Virus record (IMG/VR): IMGVR_UViG_2565956716_000001
Direction: 5' to 3' (one strand)
Length of the DNA stretch: 13,546 nucleotides
DNA from: a virus
Taxonomy: Duplodnaviria; Heunggongvirae; Uroviricota; Caudoviricetes
Part shown: positions 2,050-13,546 of the stretch, piece by piece
Layout: every line of letters begins with the position of its first letter
Position numbering within the stretch: position 1 is the first letter of the stretch
Translations under genes and position numbers: made by a program
The notes under the pieces: generated by a model
Database searches by the model: none
What the model was told of the DNA's origin: nothing
Seen by the model: the letters and a program-made list of their open reading frames with translations, nothing else

Positions 2050-2256
2050 TCATGCGCATTTGCGTAACTCCGATAAATCGTTAAAACGTTCCATAAACAT
2101 CCCGTAGGCATGACCCGGTGCCAGTGGAATCACGTTGAACATCTCTGTTGCCGGGATGCCTTCCAGTACAGGCCAGAAAGAGCCATCATCAAGCCCGAGA
2201 TCGCGGCGTTCGGTTGCCAGCATGATGAGATCGGCATATTTCACGGGTGTACTCAT
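2050..2256 (-). CDS. Hypothetical small protein (first gene of leftward int-proximal operon)
   Basis: 68-aa ORF from the ATG at 2256 (the ORF track extends to a TTG at 2274). No strong RBS and no recognised domain. Confidence 0.3.
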   Translation of the reverse strand: MSTPVKYADLIMLATERRDLGLDDGSFWPVLEGIPATEMFNVIPLAPGHAYGMFMERFNDLSELRKCA

Positions 2257-2777
2257 AACTGGGGGTAACCGCAATGCGTCGAATGTTTATCAGCTTAACG
2301 TTGCGAAGCTTCAGGCAGCGGCATTTTCTCAACTGTCAGATTCTGACCCGTCAAAATCTGACGCATCAAAATCTGACCCGTCAAAATTTGATGCGTCGAA
2401 ATCTGGCAAAAAAGCGGGTTTTCACCCGTCAGAATCTGGCGGGGATCCGTCAGTAAAATCAAAACATGATCCGTCAGATAAAAAAACTTCTCGTCCGGAC
2501 GCTTCGCAACCGGACACGCAGACGGCTGAACAGGAGTTTTTAACTCGCCATCCTGATGCGGTTGTATTCAGCCCTAAAAAGCGCCAGTGGGGAACGCAGG
2601 ATGATTTGACCTGCGCACAGTGGCTCTGGAAAAAAATCATCGCCCTGTACGAGCAGGCCGCCGAATGTGACGGCGAGGTGGTTCGTCCCAAAGAACCGAA
2701 CTGGACAGCCTGGGCAAACGAAATTCGCCTGATGTGTGTGAAGAGTGGTATCTGTCAGGGAATTACGTGGGGGCTTA
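2222..2777 (+). pseudogene. Lambda O-like replication initiator remnant (5'-truncated), containing the origin iterons
   Basis: The open frame runs through the iteron array, encoding a low-complexity linker (SDSDPSKSDASKSDPSKFDASKSG...), then about 90 protein-like codons (..AQWLWKKIIALYEQAAECDGEVVRPKEPNWTAWANEIRLMCVKSG..). Where an N-terminal DNA-binding domain should be encoded, the sequence is occupied by minus-strand ORFs. Beyond 2777 the frame turns G/R-rich and overlaps a better gene in another frame. Confidence 0.35.
2336..2410. repeat. Tandem 15-bp direct repeats (five copies, consensus TCAAAATCTGACCCG); putative ori iterons
   Basis: Read directly: tcagattctgacccg / tcaaaatctgacgca / tcaaaatctgacccg / tcaaaatttgatgcg / tcgaaatctggcaaa. 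Degenerate copies (gtcagaatctggcg, gtcagtaaaatc, gtcagataaaaaaac) and A-rich tracts follow to about 2485. Confidence 0.65.
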
Positions 2778-3104
2778 ATGACGACGTTAACTCAATGCCA
2801 GCAGCAGGTGCTGGATATGCTGATTTCTTACCAGAAAGAACGTGGCTTCCCGCCAACCAATCAGGAGGTGGCTACCATGCTGGGATACCGTTCAGTGAAT
2901 GCAGCGGTGGAGCATCTTCGCGCACTGGAGAAAAAAGGCGTCATCACGATAAAGCGTGGCGTGGCCCGGGGCATCACGCTTCATACCGCGGTGAAGGACG
3001 ACGACAGCGAGGTGGCCGGGATTATCCGCGCACTGCTTGCTGGTGAGGAAAACGCCAGGCTGCGTGCAGCCCACTGGTTACATGAGAGGGGGCTGAAAGT
3101 ATGA
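2778..3104 (+). CDS. LexA N-terminal DNA-binding-domain-like protein (winged HTH) lacking the S24 peptidase domain
   Basis: 108 aa from the ATG at 2778 (GGGGG upstream). MTTLTQCQQQVLDMLISYQKERGFPPTNQEVATMLGYRSVNAAVEHLRALEKKGVI aligns along its length with the LexA N-terminus ([56 protein letters not shown]). It ends in a short helical-looking tail and its stop overlaps the rusA ATG (ATGA). Confidence 0.7.
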   Translation: MTTLTQCQQQVLDMLISYQKERGFPPTNQEVATMLGYRSVNAAVEHLRALEKKGVITIKRGVARGITLHTAVKDDDSEVAGIIRALLAGEENARLRAAHWLHERGLKV

Positions 3105-3490
3105 AGCTGATTCTGCCTTTTCCACCCAGCGTGAACACCTACTGGCGACACCCCAACAAAGGGGCATTTGCTGGTAAGAGCCTGATAAGCGCGGCGGGGC
3201 GAAAATTCCAGAGTGCGGCGTGCACAGCAATAGTTGAGCAGTTACGTCGTCTGCCGAAACCAACGTCGGCACCTGCTTCAGTGGAGATCGTGTTGTTTCC
3301 TCCGGATAACCGGATCCGCGATCTGGACAACTATAACAAGGCGCTGTTTGACGCCCTGACCCACGCGGGTGTGTGGGAAGACGACAGTCAGGTGAAAAGA
3401 ATGCTGGTGGAGTGGGGACCGGTTATCCCGGAAGGGAAGGTCGAGATCACTATCAGTAAGTACGAGAAAACGGCGGGTGCAGCCGCCTGA
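3101..3490 (+). CDS. rusA: RusA-family Holliday junction resolvase
   Basis: 129 aa with GAGAGGGGG RBS. The motif RDLDNYNKALFDALTHAGVWEDDSQV matches the RusA catalytic-region signature (RDLDN...FDAL...DD.QV). Confidence 0.85.
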   Translation: MKLILPFPPSVNTYWRHPNKGAFAGKSLISAAGRKFQSAACTAIVEQLRRLPKPTSAPASVEIVLFPPDNRIRDLDNYNKALFDALTHAGVWEDDSQVKRMLVEWGPVIPEGKVEITISKYEKTAGAAA

Positions 3491-3509: not shown

Positions 3510-4307
3510 ATGAATAATCTGATGGTCATTGATGGTATTGAAGTTCGTCGTGATGCTTATGGGCGTTACAGCCTGAACGATCTGCACAGGGCTGCCGGTT
3601 CTCTGGATAAGCATAAGCCTGCATTCTGGCTCCGCAATGAGCAAACTGAACGTTTAATAAGCGAGTTGCAGATTTGCAACTCGGTCAATATAGAGCCAGT
3701 TAACGTTATTCGTGGCGGAAATAACCAGGGGACGTATGTCTGCAAAGAACTGGTGTATGCCTATGCAATGTGGATCAGCCCGTCATTCCATCTGAAGGTG
3801 ATCCGTACTTTCGATATGGTAACCAGCGCATCGGAAAAATTATCCGGGCAGGCTGCTGACAAGATGCAGGCTGGCGTGATTCTGCTGGACTTTATGCGCC
3901 GGGAGTTAAACCTGTCTAACTCTTCAGTGCTTGGTGCCTGTCAGAAACTCCAGGAGGCTGTTGGCTTACCGAATCTGGCACCGCGCTATGCCATTGATGC
4001 TCCTGCTGACGCGCCTGATGGCTCAAGCCGTCCCACGCTGTCACTGAGTGCACTGCTGAAGCAGTATGGTATCCGCCTGACAGCTAATCAGGCATATCAC
4101 CAGATGGTGAAGCTGGGGATCGTCGAGCAGCGCGAACGATACAGCCGTACCGCGATTAACAACATCAAAAAATTCTGGTCGCTGACAGCGAAAGGCTGCA
4201 TGTTCGGCAAGAACATCACCAGTCCCGCAAATCCGCGCGAGACGCAGCCGCATTTCTTCGAATCCCGATTCCCTGAGCTGTTAAAGCTGCTCGATACCGT
4301 TCATTGA
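3510..4307 (+). CDS. KilA-N domain DNA-binding protein (Roi/antirepressor-like)
   Basis: ATG at 3510 with AGAGGAG RBS. The N-terminal MNNLMVIDGIEVRRDAYGRYSLNDLHRAAG...KPAFWLRNEQT is a typical KilA-N domain; the C-terminal half is unassigned. Confidence 0.8.
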   Translation: MNNLMVIDGIEVRRDAYGRYSLNDLHRAAGSLDKHKPAFWLRNEQTERLISELQICNSVNIEPVNVIRGGNNQGTYVCKELVYAYAMWISPSFHLKVIRTFDMVTSASEKLSGQAADKMQAGVILLDFMRRELNLSNSSVLGACQKLQEAVGLPNLAPRYAIDAPADAPDGSSRPTLSLSALLKQYGIRLTANQAYHQMVKLGIVEQRERYSRTAINNIKKFWSLTAKGCMFGKNITSPANPRETQPHFFESRFPELLKLLDTVH

Positions 4308-4308
4308 G

Positions 4309-5304
4309 GTGACCGTGAGAGCACTACTGACCCCTGAAATTGCCCCGCGTATGGGGATCGTATTGTTCAGGCCCGGTTCAGAGCTGATGCCCCTGTTTAT
4401 GCAGGGGCGTGTACTGCTGGAGCCTGAGCCGGAGCATTATTCATCTTTCGCCAGTGGTGCCGTTCCCGCGGCATCACAACCGCTGGCGGATGATCCTGCC
4501 GTTCGGGCCGTGTTCCGTAATGAGGCAGTGATTCGTCGTGCTGGTGGGGTGGAATGTCTTGAAAGCTGGTTACTTCGTGAAAAAGGCTGCCAGTGGCCTC
4601 ATTCCGACTGGCACAGCGAGAACATGACCACAATGCGACACGCGCCGGGCGCAATCCGTCTGTGCTGGCACTGCGATAATCAGTTACGTGATCAGTTCAC
4701 GGAGCGGCTGGAATCAATGGCAACGGATAACTGTGCCCGTTGGGTGTTGTCTGTAGTCCGTCGGGATCTCGATTTTAATGATAACCATGCCGTGACAATG
4801 CCGGAACTGTGCTGGTGGCTGGTTCGTAATGACCTGGCGGATGCCTTACCGGAAAGCGCAGCCCGTAAGGCACTGAGATTACCGAAGTCTGTTTTGCCGT
4901 CTGTCACTCGGGAAAGTGACCTTGTGCCTTCGGTTCCTGCCACCAGCATTATCCAGGATAAAGCGAAAAAGGTGCTGGCGCTGAAAGTGGATCCGGAGTC
5001 GCCGGAGTCTTTTATGTTACGCCCCAAACGTCGTCGCTGGGTTAATGAACAGTACACGCGCTGGGTTAAGACGCAGCCGTGTGCATGTTGTGGAAAGCCA
5101 GCTGATGATCCGCATCATCTGATAGGCCATGGTCAGGGTGGAATGGGTACAAAAGCGCATGACCTTTTTGTGCTGCCTTTGTGCAGAAAACACCACGACG
5201 AACTGCATGCGGATACCGTGGCATTTGAAGAGAAGTATAGCTCCCAGCTGGAGCTGATATTTCGTTTTATCGATCGCGCACTGGCGATTGGTGTGCTGGC
5301 CTGA
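4309..5304 (+). CDS. DUF968-family protein with C-terminal HNH-like motif
   Basis: 331-aa ORF. The C-terminus [31 protein letters not shown] is the cysteine/histidine motif of DUF968 proteins found next to Q in lambdoid prophages. Start is uncertain: GTG at 4309 sits 1 nt after the upstream stop, with internal ATG alternatives. Confidence 0.7.
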
Positions 5305-5321: not shown

Positions 5322-5705
5322 ATGCGTGATATTCAGATGGTTCTTGAACGTTGGGGAGCGTGGGCGGCTAATAATCATGAAGATGTGACCTGGTCGTCCA
5401 TTGCCGCCGGTTTTAAGGGATTAATTCCTTCAAAAGTAAAATCTCGCCCGCAATGTTGTGACGATGACGCGATGATCATTTGCGGGTGCATGGCCCGTCT
5501 GAAAAAGAACAACAGCGATTTGCACGATTTATTAGTAGATTATTATGTAGTCGGTATGACATTCATGTCACTGGCAGGTAAGCATTGCTGCTCTGATGGT
5601 TATATCGGGAAAAGGTTACAGAAGGCTGAGGGCATAATTGAAGGGATGTTAATGGCATTAGATATCCGGTTAGAGATGGATATCGTTGTTAATAACTCTA
5701 ATTAA
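5322..5705 (+). CDS. quuD: Late-gene antiterminator Q (DLP12 QuuD-type)
   Basis: 127 aa from the ATG at 5322 (GGAGAAAG RBS); the ORF track begins 5 codons earlier at a [21 protein letters not shown]... with a Cys-rich zinc-binding region ([12 protein letters not shown] ... HCC) fits the small Q antiterminator family. Confidence 0.85.
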
Positions 5706-5894: not shown

Positions 5895-6992
5895 TTAGAA
5901 CTGGTAAACCAGACCTACAGCAACGATGTCATCAGTGCTTACACCGAGTGCTTTAGTGAAGTCATTTTTGTCAAGCAGGTTGATTTTGTAATCAACGAAA
6001 GTAGACATATTTTTGTTGAAGTAATAGGTTGCACCTACATCAACATATTTGACTAAGTCCTGATCGCCCCATACTCCAAGATCCTTACCTTTAGATTGCA
6101 GGTAAGCAACGGACGGACGCAGACCGAAATCGAACTGATATTGTGCAACAGCTTCGAAGTTTTGAGCTTTATTAGCAACGAAGTGATCAGCAAATACAGT
6201 CATATTCTGGGTTTCAGAATAGGTAGTGGCCAGGTAAATGTTGTTAGCGTCATATTTCAGACCTGCGGCCCAAACTTCTGCATTTTTACCGGAAGCAAAT
6301 ACTTCAGGAAGAACTTTCCCTGCATTAACTTGAGTGTCGGTACGATCAGATTTCGCATAAGTTGCACCGATACCGAATCCTTCGTATTCATAGGTAGCAG
6401 AGAAACCGAAGCCATCACCGTTACCTTCGGTGTAGTTATCGAAATCGCTACGATCGTTTTTGCCTTGGTACTGAGCAGCAAAGTTCAGACCATCAACCAG
6501 ACCAAAGAAGTCGTTGTTACGATAGGTTGCAACACCAGTGGTGCGACCAGTCATGAACACATCTGTTTGGGTCCAGGTATCGCCACCGAATTCTGGCAGA
6601 ACGTCAGTCCACGCACCGATGTCGTATGCTACACCGTAGTTACGGCCGTAATCGATTGAGCCGTAGTCACCGAATTTCAGGCCTGCAAATGCAAGACGGG
6701 TTTTGTCTTTGGAGGAACCTTGAGATTCAGCGCGGTTGCCTTTGAATTCATATTCCCACTGACCGAAACCAGTCAGCTGATCGTTGATTTGGGTTTCGCC
6801 TTTGAAGCCCAGACGAACATAAGTAGTATCACCATCATCTGCATCGTTAGAGGAAAAGTAGTGCTTGGCATTAACTTTCCCGTACAGATCCAGCTTGTTA
6901 CTGTCTTTATTATAAATTTCAGCTGCCTGAGCAGACATCGCCATCAGTACTGATGCAGCTACAGCAGAAATTGCCACTGTTAATTTTTTCAT
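5895..6992 (-). CDS. nmpC: Outer-membrane general porin NmpC (OmpC/OmpD/Lc family), intact
   Basis: 365 aa with signal peptide [27 protein letters not shown] and a C-terminal ..VAVGLVYQF beta-barrel motif ending in Phe. ATG at 6992. Uninterrupted ORF in this window. Confidence 0.95.
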
Positions 6993-7796: not shown

Positions 7797-8293
7797 TGCC
7801 TCCATCATTACGAAAAGCCGTTGCTGCTGCTATTGGTGGCGGAGCAATTGCTATAGCATCAGTGTTAATCACTGGCCCAAGTGGTAACGATGGTCTGGAA
7901 GGTGTCAGCTACATACCATACAAAGATATTGTTGGTGTATGGACTGTATGTCACGGACACACCGGAAAAGACATCATGCTCGGTAAAACGTATACCAAAG
8001 CAGAATGCAAAGCACTCTTGAATAAAGACCTTGCCACTGTCGCCAGACAAATTAACCCGTATATCAAAGTCGATATACCGGAAACAACGCGCGGCGCTCT
8101 TTACTCATTCGTTTACAACGTGGGTGCTGGCAATTTTAGAACATCGACGCTTCTTCGCAAAATAAACCAGGGCGATATCAAAGGCGCATGTGATCAGCTG
8201 CGTCGCTGGACATACGCTGGCGGTAAGCAATGGAAAGGCCTGATGACTCGTCGTGAGATTGAGCGTGAAGTCTGTTTGTGGGGGCAACAGTGA
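7796..8293 (+). CDS. rrrD: SAR endolysin (T4-lysozyme-like muramidase, phage 21 R type)
   Basis: 165 aa. The Gly/Ala-rich N-terminal segment [20 protein letters not shown] is a signal-anchor-release domain. Catalytic Glu35-Asp44-Thr50 are in the expected spacing ([18 protein letters not shown]). Confidence 0.92.
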
Positions 8294-11016: not shown

Positions 11017-11562
11017 ATGGAAGTCAACAAAAAGCAGCTGGCTGAAATTTTCGGCGCGAGTATCCGTACCATTCAGAACTGGCAGGAGCAGGGAATGCCC
11101 GTTCTGCGAGGCGGTGGGAAGGGTAATGAGGTGCTTTATGACTCTGCCGCCGTCATAAAATGGTATGCCGAAAGGGATGCTGAAATTGAGAACGAAAAGC
11201 TGCGCCGGGAGGTTGAAGAACTGCGACAGGCCAGCGAGACAGATCTCCAGCCAGGGACTATTGAGTACGAACGCCATCGACTTACGCGTGCGCAGGCCGA
11301 CGCACAGGAGCTGAAAAATGCCAGAGACTCCGCTGAAGTGGTGGAAACCGCATTCTGTACTTTCGTGCTGTCGCGGATCGCAGGTGAAATTGCCAGTATT
11401 CTCGACGGGATCCCCCTGTCGGTGCAGCGGCGTTTTCCGGAACTGGAAAACCGACATGTTGATTTCCTGAAACGGGATATCATCAAAGCCATGAACAAAG
11501 CAGCCGCGCTGGATGAACTGATACCGGGGTTGCTGAGTGAATATATCGAACAGTCAGGTTAA
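11017..11562 (+). CDS. nohD: Terminase small subunit Nu1
   Basis: 181 aa, [36 protein letters not shown]..., collinear with lambda Nu1 over its full length. N-terminal winged HTH and P-loop-like GGGKG. Confidence 0.95.
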
Positions 11563-13546
11563 CAGGCTGCGACATTTTGTCCGCGCCGGGCTTCGCTCAC
11601 TGTTCAGGCCGGAGCCACAGACTGCCGTTGAATGGGCGGATGCTAATTACTATCTCCCGAAAGAATCCGCATACCAGGAAGGGCGCTGGGAAACACTGCC
11701 CTTTCAGCGGGCCATCATGAATGCGATGGGCAGCGACTATATCCGTGAGGTGAATGTAGTGAAGTCTGCCCGTGTCGGTTATTCCAAAATGCTGCTGGGT
11801 GTTTATGCCTACTTTATAGAGCATAAGCAACGCAACACACTTATCTGGTTGCCGACGGATGGTGATGCCGAGAACTTTATGAAAACCCACGTTGAGCCGA
11901 CCATCCGCGATATTCCGTCGCTGCTGGCGCTGGCTCCGTGGTATGGCAAAAAGCACCGGGATAACACGCTCACCATGAAGCGTTTCACCAATGGTCGTGG
12001 CTTCTGGTGCCTGGGCGGTAAAGCGGCAAAAAACTACCGTGAAAAGTCGGTGGATGTGGCGGGTTATGATGAACTTGCTGCCTTTGATGATGATATTGAA
12101 CAGGAAGGCTCTCCGACGTTCCTGGGTGACAAGCGTATTGAAGGCTCGGTCTGGCCAAAGTCCATCCGTGGCTCCACGCCCAAAGTGAGAGGCACCTGTC
12201 AGATTGAGCGTGCAGCCAGTGAATCCCCGCATTTTATGCGTTTTCATGTTGCCTGCCCGCACTGCGGGGAGGAGCAGTACCTTAAATTCGGCGATAAAGA
12301 GACGCCGTTTGGCTTCAAATGGACGCCGGATGATCCCTCCAGCGTGTTTTATCTCTGCGAACATAATGCCTGCGTCATCCGCCAGCAGGAGCTGGACTTC
12401 ACTGATGCCCGTTATATCTGCGAAAAGACCGGGATCTGGACCCGTGATGGCATTCTCTGGTTTTCGTCATCCGGTGAAGAGATTGAGCCACCGGACAGCG
12501 TGACCTTTCACATCTGGACGGCGTACAGCCCGTTCACCACCTGGGTGCAGATTGTCAAAGACTGGATGAAGACGAAAGGGGATACGGGAAAACGTAAAAC
12601 CTTCGTGAACACCACGCTCGGTGAGACATGGGAAGCGAAAATCGGTGAACGTCCGGATGCTGAAGTGATGGCAGAGCGGAAAGAGCATTATTCAGCGCCC
12701 GTTCCTGACCGTGTGGCTTACCTGACTGCCGGTATCGACTCCCAGCTGGACCGCTACGAAATGCGCGTATGGGGATGGGGGCCGGGTGAGGAAAGCTGGC
12801 TGATTGACCGGCAGATTATTATGGGCCGCCACGACGATGAACAGACGCTGCTGCGTGTGGATGAGGCCATCAATAAAACCTATACCCGCCGGAATGGTGC
12901 AGAAATGTCGATATCCCGTATCTGCTGGGATATTGGCGGGATTGACCCGACCATTGTGTATGAACGCTCGAAAAAACATGGGCTGTTCCGGGTGATCCCC
13001 ATTAAAGGGGCATCCGTCTACGGAAAGCCGGTGGCCAGCATGCCACGTAAGCGAAACAAAAACGGGGTTTACCTTACCGAAATCGGCACGGATATTGCAC
13101 CACCAGATATTCCTGCTGGCTTTGTGGCTGTTTTCAACAGTGATGAGGCATCGTGGCATCTCGTTGAAGATCATCGGGGTAAAACGGTTTATGACGTGGC
13201 TTCCGGCGACGCGTTATTTATTTCTGAACTCGGCTCATTACCGGAAAATGTCACCTGGTTATCCCCGGAAGGGGAGTTTCAGAAGTGGAACGGCACAGCT
13301 TGGGTGAAGGATACGGAAGCAGAAAAACTGTTCCGGATCCGTGAGGCGGAAGAAACAAAAAACAGCCTGATGCAGGTAGCCAGTGAGCATATAGCGCCGC
13401 TTCAGGATGCTGTGGATCTGGAGATCGCAACGGAGGAAGAAACCTTGTTGCTGGAAGCCTGGAAAAAGTATCGGGTGTTGCTGAACCGTGTTGATACATC
13501 AACTGCACCTGATATTGAGTGGCCTACGAACCCTGTCAGGGAGTAA
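11537..13546 (+). CDS. Terminase large subunit gpA (N-terminal ~519 aa) fused in frame to the C-terminal ~150 aa of tail-fibre assembly protein Tfa; deletion remnant
   Basis: GTG start at 11537 overlapping the Nu1 3' end. Residues 1-519 follow lambda gpA ([14 protein letters not shown]...[10 protein letters not shown]...). After ..LTEIGTD (codon 519 at 13091-13093) the sequence continues [35 protein letters not shown]...[13 protein letters not shown], which is the Tfa C-terminal region. The window ends on its stop codon. Confidence 0.88.

Follow-up and report, generated by a model that had tools for sequence, protein, structure and literature searches.

The window, by which we mean the whole 13,546-nt stretch of DNA analysed here, is a cryptic lambdoid prophage at the tRNA-Arg (argU)/DLP12 site. 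It opens with intD, an excisionase remnant, yfdT, yfdR' and a truncated O-like replication gene, continues with a gene for a LexA-like protein, rusA, a KilA-N gene, a DUF968/HNH gene and quuD, and ends with a porin gene, essD-rrrD-rzpD, bor, nohD and a terminase fragment. The LexA-like gene occupies positions 2778 to 3104 on the plus strand and encodes 108 amino acids, identical to RefSeq WP_000210176.1 and matching phrog_362 over its full length. It is followed on the same strand by rusA (3101 to 3490), encoding a 129-aa Holliday-junction resolvase (Pfam RusA, E 7e-15; phrog_34; RefSeq), and by the genes for a KilA-N protein (3510 to 4307), a DUF968/HNH nuclease (4315 to 5304) and the antiterminator Q/QuuD (5322 to 5705), all three assigned by Pfam and by the RefSeq annotation of an identical locus and recurring in this order in diverged relatives. 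An intact 365-aa OmpC/NmpC-type porin gene lies on the minus strand (5895 to 6992), between Q and the lysis cassette.

The prophage in the window has no immunity region, cI, cro and the early promoter (pR) all being absent from it, and all of its virion structural genes are gone. At its far end (11537 to 13546) a 669-codon ORF joins an N-terminal portion of the large terminase subunit to the C-terminus of a tail-fibre assembly protein, a fusion that marks the structural-gene deletion, as in K-12 DLP12. The O-like replication initiator remnant (2261 to 2740, plus strand) is truncated at both ends, as seen by alignment, and is listed as a RefSeq pseudogene in an otherwise identical locus. Within it, 4.3 copies of a 15-nt tandem unit, TCTGACCCGTCAAAA, form iterons at 2342 to 2405. 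These look like a lambda-type origin embedded in the initiator gene.

Apart from 687 bp that it lacks, the window matched E. coli MSHS 472, OHT76-1 and 18AR0366 with 100% identity. The missing segment contains the O-like gene's 3′ end together with almost the whole of yfdN, a member of the PerC family (compare L003 4200-4965). Alignment to the intact locus placed the deletion junction at 2738 to 2740, in a GTG microhomology. The best genome matches of the window were all in two pieces, broken at this point, and no contiguous copy of the junction turned up among 5426 complete E. coli genomes or 80 IMG/VR loci. The deletion may be private to this strain, or it may be an artefact of assembly or editing. 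It creates a chimeric 303-aa ORF (2135 to 3046) that runs out of frame across the LexA-like gene and is spurious. The end of the deletion lies 38 nt upstream of the LexA-like ATG, and the start codon and the Shine-Dalgarno-like run preceding it are untouched. No sigma-70-like promoter above chance level was found upstream of the gene in the window. Since the immunity region and the early promoter are lost and the private deletion lies just upstream, the gene is likely to be weakly expressed here, if at all.

The LexA-like ORF runs from the ATG at 2778 to the TGA at 3102 to 3104 (108 codons, from the ORF list and the sequence), and its translation is identical to the annotated CDS of E. coli MSHS 472 and C10. 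A Shine-Dalgarno-like GTGGGGG (2767 to 2773, plus strand) lies 4 nt 5′ of the ATG. In the alignment to the intact locus, the yfdN/PerC stop codon TAA (2776 to 2778) shares bases with this ATG in a TAATG overlap. Homologues and LexA itself align from residue 1 or 2 and RefSeq uses the same ATG. Together with the position of GTGGGGG, these alignments indicate that 2778 is the correct start, so that the 108-aa product of the initial annotation is not the result of a misplaced start. A longer ORF beginning at GTG-2745 would add 11 residues without homology and was rejected. The overlap of stop and start codons with a Holliday-junction resolvase gene, also reported there, was confirmed as an ATGA at 3101 to 3104 on the plus strand.

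A LexA-type winged helix without a peptidase domain

Residues 1-70 of the protein (2778 to 2987, plus strand) form a LexA-type winged helix-turn-helix according to Pfam, phmmer against the PDB, AlphaFold and Foldseek. The Pfam model PF01726 (LexA_DNA_bind) matched residues 1-65 across all 65 profile positions (E 2.9e-19; 69 bits, cut-off 23.7). In phmmer searches of the PDB, the top match was the N-terminal domain of E. coli LexA, 1lea (E 8e-16, residues 2-69), to which the protein is 50% identical. The alignment through the recognition-helix stretch RSVNAAVEHLRALEKKG that had originally been proposed from the letters was reproduced exactly by this search. The TIGR00498 lexA model aligned collinearly, its positions 1-91 against residues 1-91, and the equivalog score (67.4 bits) was below the curated cut-off of 110.95. 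The phrog_362 profile matched residues 1-108 at its positions 1-106 (E 7e-58).

An AlphaFold model computed from a 20-sequence family alignment (pLDDT 83.5) superseded a single-sequence run that was too poor for use (pLDDT 52). Its DNA-binding domain has helices at residues 6-22, 28-35 and 40-52, the last being the recognition helix, and wing strands at 56-58 and 66-68, followed by a low-confidence linker (71-74). The top Foldseek match in the PDB was 3jso, LexA on operator DNA, with an rmsd of 0.8 A over 68 residues. The LexA-like winged-helix fold expected from the sequence is therefore present in the predicted structure. The expected lack of an autoproteolytic domain was borne out as well: the Pfam search found no Peptidase_S24 (PF00717) in the protein, and only about 39 residues follow the wing.

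These results lead us to read the gene as encoding a small phage DNA-binding protein derived from the N-terminal winged helix of a gammaproteobacterial LexA.

In LexA, R28 is a DNA-contact residue. Contacts from helix III are made by S39, N41, A42, E44 and E45 (PMC3091678). We compared these positions between 12 family members and five canonical LexA sequences. S39, N41, A42, A43, E45 and H46 were kept across the 12 members, as were R64 and G65 in the wing, so that four of the five cited helix-III contacts (S39, N41, A42 and E45) are retained family-wide. Positions 28 and 44 were variable in the family, with non-charged replacements. At position 28, four of the five canonical sequences have R and none of the 12 members does (N in the window protein); at position 44, four of the five have E, and the family has A, V, F, T, L or Y (V in the window protein). 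Because most contacts are retained and R28 and E44 are replaced, DNA binding is very likely kept, whereas the same specificity is not assured. We regard sequence-specific DNA binding as highly likely, and the replacement of R28 and E44 argues for a specificity that is altered or relaxed relative to LexA. Among alleles from E. coli and Shigella phages, residues 1-70 showed one conservative change, and all other amino-acid changes fell in the tail.

The tail itself is specific to the family. Residues 75-104 (3000 to 3089, plus strand) were predicted by AlphaFold to form a helical hairpin (helices 75-88 and 93-103), and a motif in this region, E..IIRALLAGE..AR.RA..WL..RG, was retained by relatives with as little as about 40% identity; its A97 and L101 never vary. 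Its hydrophobic positions are spaced i, i+1, i+4, i+5, as along one face of a helix. From the conserved motif and this single hydrophobic face we infer that the hairpin serves as a dimeriser in place of the missing C-terminal domain of LexA, and dimerisation through the tail seems to us somewhat more probable than its absence. In the alignment, A88-G89-E90 of the protein stands opposite A84-G85-E86 of LexA; these residues are predicted to be helical, and the catalytic domain is absent. The resemblance of this 'AGE' to the LexA cleavage site was dismissed as a look-alike that varies across the family (LLTRKE, MVERES, MIDDQP and others).

Distribution and gene neighbourhood

The 1.1-kb region was matched in 2709 of 5426 complete E. 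coli genomes. The LexA-like gene was present in 61 phage records, including SfII, SfIV, SfV, cdtI, mEp460 and Stx2a, Stx2c and Stx2k phages. It already carries the names 'LexA DNA binding domain protein' and 'LexA family transcriptional regulator' (WP_000210176.1) in GenBank and RefSeq, and as an object it is not new. The names 'repressor' and 'SOS-response repressor and protease LexA' in some records are automatic; 'protease' is wrong and 'repressor' putative. We found no published study of this enterobacterial LexA-like family in the literature. It thus appears to be an uncharacterised and very common LexA paralogue of E. coli with a strongly conserved DNA-binding domain.

An exhaustive HMMER search over 1.84 billion representatives recovered tail-bearing relatives down to about 40% identity. 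Many phage proteins of 65-150 aa consisting of a LexA DNA-binding domain only were present in BFVD. Many other database proteins, of 140-350 aa, had two tandem LexA DNA-binding domains (P0129, P0130, P0146, P0150-P0153, P0157-P0160).

In intact phages the gene belongs to the early-right operon on the cro strand, with the replication genes before it and Q after it. The order to its left is cI / cro-cII-(genes)-O-like initiator-PerC-[Dam]-LexA-like, and to its right LexA-like-RusA-[KilA-N or ANT]-DUF968-Q, mostly with overlaps of 1-4 nt. Directly after the LexA-like gene, rusA was found in all 80 IMG/VR loci, which are near-identical E. coli loci and add no diversity; PerC-Dam lay upstream in 50 of these and PerC in 29. 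The ATGA overlap with rusA also occurred in four of six relatives at 42-50% identity (L006, L007, L011, L014). Of the remaining two, one had a 67-codon gene in between and the other an opposite-strand insert. Among the six, L010 stands apart in its replication module, which is of the DUF1376 plus lambda-P type; its LexA-like gene still lies upstream of rusA. In four of five diverged loci RusA was 65-77% identical, compared with 42-50% for the LexA-like protein there; the RusA of L010 gave only a 38-residue local match.

The Salmonella phage ST64B carries PerC-Dam-RusA without the LexA-like gene, and there dam overlaps rusA in the same manner. DLP12 of K-12 and phage 82 likewise carry rusA and are not known to have the gene. 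Since rusA occurs without it in these cases, the LexA-like gene counts as an optional accessory, one that moves together with the rusA-DUF968-Q block. This bears on the suggestion of the initial annotation that the overlap with rusA indicates co-expression. Judged from the gene arrangement, the two genes are co-transcribed and probably translationally coupled; a joint function, by contrast, does not follow, given the dam-rusA overlap of ST64B and the general packing of the operon.

The CPS-53 prophage of K-12 (L096 6113-6388) retains yfdO (an O remnant), yfdN (PerC) and a truncated dam (yfdM). It breaks inside yfdM into tail-fibre pseudogenes, and the position of the LexA-like gene is deleted. 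According to the GenBank record of SfV (L004 29523-29549), a dam promoter with -35 and -10 elements lies within the PerC-like gene. Provided that it is real, this promoter could make the expression of dam, the LexA-like gene and rusA independent of pR in lysogens. The equivalent region is deleted in the window.

Search for SOS boxes and other operators

A scan of the prophage for CTGT-N8-ACAG boxes, as originally proposed, gave nothing in favour of LexA-type operators there: no perfect box was found in the 13,546-nt window, and the six matches with one mismatch were at chance level. Using a PWM built from 14 E. coli SOS boxes, the best score in the window was 14.2, within the DUF968 gene. Among the phages carrying the gene, CTGT-N8-ACAG was the sole enriched spacing (9 observed versus 1.7 expected, representing about six independent sites), and several SOS boxes of related phages had PWM scores on a par with the best chromosomal boxes. 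No other palindrome or spacing built on CTGT/ACAG half-sites was enriched or positionally conserved in the phages examined. An excess of ACAG-N13/N14-CTGT had no shared sequence or position and was dropped.

One near-consensus box, TACTGTTTTTATATACAGTA, was located within the coding sequence of cI in SfII, the C10 prophage, mEp460 and ST64B, its flanks having diverged in the last (L001 4159-4178; L002 1446-1465; L013 3971-3990; L015 7063-7082). It falls in the linker region, about 210 nt from the cI start, and overlaps a possible TTTACC-17-TACTGT promoter on the cI strand. Its position suggests that LexA may control an internal or antisense transcript within cI. All 13 E. coli and Shigella phage records with this type of cI carry the LexA-like gene. 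A link between box and gene was nevertheless rejected, as the box is also present in ST64B (score 22.9), where the gene is absent. Because the cI-internal box is conserved there without the gene, the boxes of related phages may just serve host LexA. SfV and mEp460 share a second good box, TACTGTAAAAATAAACAGTG (L004 34170-34189; L013 13022-13041). It begins 10 nt past the start codon of a late-region gene for a DNA methylase, situated between Q and the lysis genes.

The relative L010 has two SOS boxes, one in the 3530-3580 region and one at 8164-8183. The former directly follows a promoter-like TTGCAA-16-TAATAA and lies upstream of the operon that holds the LexA-like gene. The order of this operon is 82-aa ORF / LexA-like / 67-aa ORF / RusA / DUF968 / Q. 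The latter box is strong and lies 3′ of a lysozyme gene. It is possible that the copy of the module in L010 is controlled by LexA or autoregulated; the arrangement looks like lexA autoregulation and is the best hint for a reading in which the protein acts at SOS boxes.

Proposed role and alternatives

The initial annotation suggested that the protein could act as an SOS-insensitive repressor or a competitor of host LexA. Insensitivity to RecA follows from the architecture: self-cleavage by the LexA mechanism under RecA stimulation is impossible because the S24 domain is absent, and we are confident that the protein is RecA-insensitive. Mimicry of the LexA operator did not fare as well, as the window lacks an SOS box above chance level and R28 and E44 are replaced. 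We propose, with slightly less than even confidence in the reading as a whole, that the protein would be made from the early-right operon of the phage and would dimerise through its C-terminal hairpin, and that the dimer would recognise a palindrome with half-sites similar to the CTGT of SOS boxes. Uncleavable through RecA, it could then act as an accessory regulator in lytic growth, once host LexA has been destroyed. Its most likely action would be repression at SOS-box-like sites of the phage, the host or both. That its targets are canonical SOS boxes appears to us less likely than not. Improbable on present evidence is a stronger form of this idea, in which the protein is a RecA-proof mimic that re-occupies SOS boxes after the loss of LexA, reshaping or shutting down the SOS regulon and silencing the LexA-controlled antirepressors of rival prophages.

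The protein might instead be a phage-specific regulator with an operator of its own, unrelated to SOS boxes, which tunes early or late phage transcription and does not rival LexA. Such a regulator may be an activator, by analogy with GIL01 gp6 at P3. The loss in the family of R28 and E44, which four of the five canonical LexA sequences keep, is consistent with such an operator, and the tail, as a different dimeriser, would probably set another half-site spacing than that of LexA. The phages examined, however, yielded no alternative CTGT/ACAG palindrome or spacing that was enriched or conserved in position, most recognition-helix residues are still those of LexA, and lambdoid late transcription is already under the control of Q, encoded in the same module. 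As a precedent, the truncated LexA homologue GIL01 gp6 binds a distinct palindrome, GaCACAnnTGTGaC, and activates transcription (PMC6182141). On balance we consider an operator unrelated to SOS boxes unlikely, while giving it more weight than the other alternatives. It is harder still to see the protein as an architectural or targeting accessory of the adjacent recombination genes, RusA and the DUF968 HNH nuclease, a role of the kind proposed for lambda NinH and one that we regard as very unlikely here. NinH is a precedent for a phage borrowing the DNA-binding domain of its host within the nin region (PMC7166090). The gene is also immediately 5′ of rusA in all 80 of the near-identical IMG/VR loci, directly upstream of it in four of six relatives and one gene off in the other two, and the rusA neighbourhood is kept even where the replication module differs. 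Overlapping stop and start codons are, however, general throughout this operon, and the divergence of RusA (65-77% identity) and of the LexA-like protein (42-50%) in four of the five loci shows no evident co-variation. Moreover, RusA occurs without the LexA-like gene in ST64B, and K-12 DLP12 and phage 82, which also have RusA, are not known to carry it.

A different kind of explanation concerns the window only, where the gene could be a silent passenger, left intact but unexpressed in a decayed prophage and currently of no use to the host. The decay is plain: cI, cro and pR are lost, O is truncated at both ends, the terminase is fused and the structural genes are gone, and the private 687-bp deletion ends 38 nt upstream, with an out-of-frame ORF crossing the gene and no above-chance promoter preceding it. 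We also count in its favour that rusA at the equivalent DLP12 locus of K-12 is silent unless activated by IS insertions. The ORF, however, is intact and 100% identical to the commonest allele, about half of the complete E. coli genomes have a match to the region, and the deletion spared both the start codon and the Shine-Dalgarno-like run. A silent passenger of this kind strikes us as rather improbable. A role in anti-phage defence was discarded, as PADLOC gave no match to RusA or DUF968 and, for the LexA-like protein, none whose whole-protein E was below about 1e-4.

Should the phage-encoded LexA derivative that we favour bind SOS boxes, a large part of natural E. coli and Shigella strains, and Stx phages, would carry a second, uncleavable LexA-like repressor, which work on laboratory K-12 may have missed. 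Were it a RecA-proof mimic in the full sense, it would be made from the early operon of the induced phage. About half of E. coli strains might also produce small amounts of it from their cryptic prophages, and SOS behaviour would differ systematically between carriers of the gene and K-12. SOS-driven mutagenesis, antibiotic tolerance, the induction of Stx phages and competition between prophages are the topics touched. With an operator of its own, the protein would be another accessory regulator of lambdoid phages.

Comparison with known systems

The closest relatives are the members of phrog_362/WP_000210176.1 (SfV orf42, SfII_44, mEp460_046), which are 94-97% or fully identical over the full length, tail included. 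E. coli LexA (1lea/3jso) shares the winged-helix fold, with 50% identity and an rmsd of 0.8 A over 68 residues. Where LexA has an S24 peptidase and dimerisation domain, the LexA-like protein has a C-terminal helical hairpin, and whereas lexA is an autoregulated chromosomal gene, the LexA-like gene is phage-encoded in an early-right operon.

NinH of phage lambda mimics Fis, and its gene shares the nin region with that of the resolvase Rap (PMC7166090). Both NinH and the LexA-like protein are small phage copies of the DNA-binding parts of host global regulators, and both are encoded by nin-type genes between replication and Q, in a region with a Holliday-junction resolvase. However, NinH has a Fis-type HTH and the LexA-like protein a LexA winged helix. 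The folds are unrelated and the likeness is one of analogy only.

A further truncated LexA homologue is gp6 of GIL01, a tectivirus of Bacillus thuringiensis, which activates the late promoter P3 and binds its distinct palindrome (PMC6182141). Like the LexA-like protein, it matches the LexA domain, is encoded with the early genes and is uncleavable through RecA. The two differ in their C-terminal parts, gp6 having a 14-residue extension that completes the wing and the LexA-like protein an additional helical hairpin of about 35 residues. They also differ in their carriers, a tectivirus in one case and enterobacterial lambdoid or Mu-tailed temperate phages in the other, with hosts from different clades. 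The operator and activator role of gp6 are experimental, whereas the LexA-like protein is known here from its sequence and a structural model. GIL01 gp6 is thus the closest characterised precedent, and it establishes that a phage protein consisting of a LexA DNA-binding domain only can be a functional site-specific regulator (PMC6182141).
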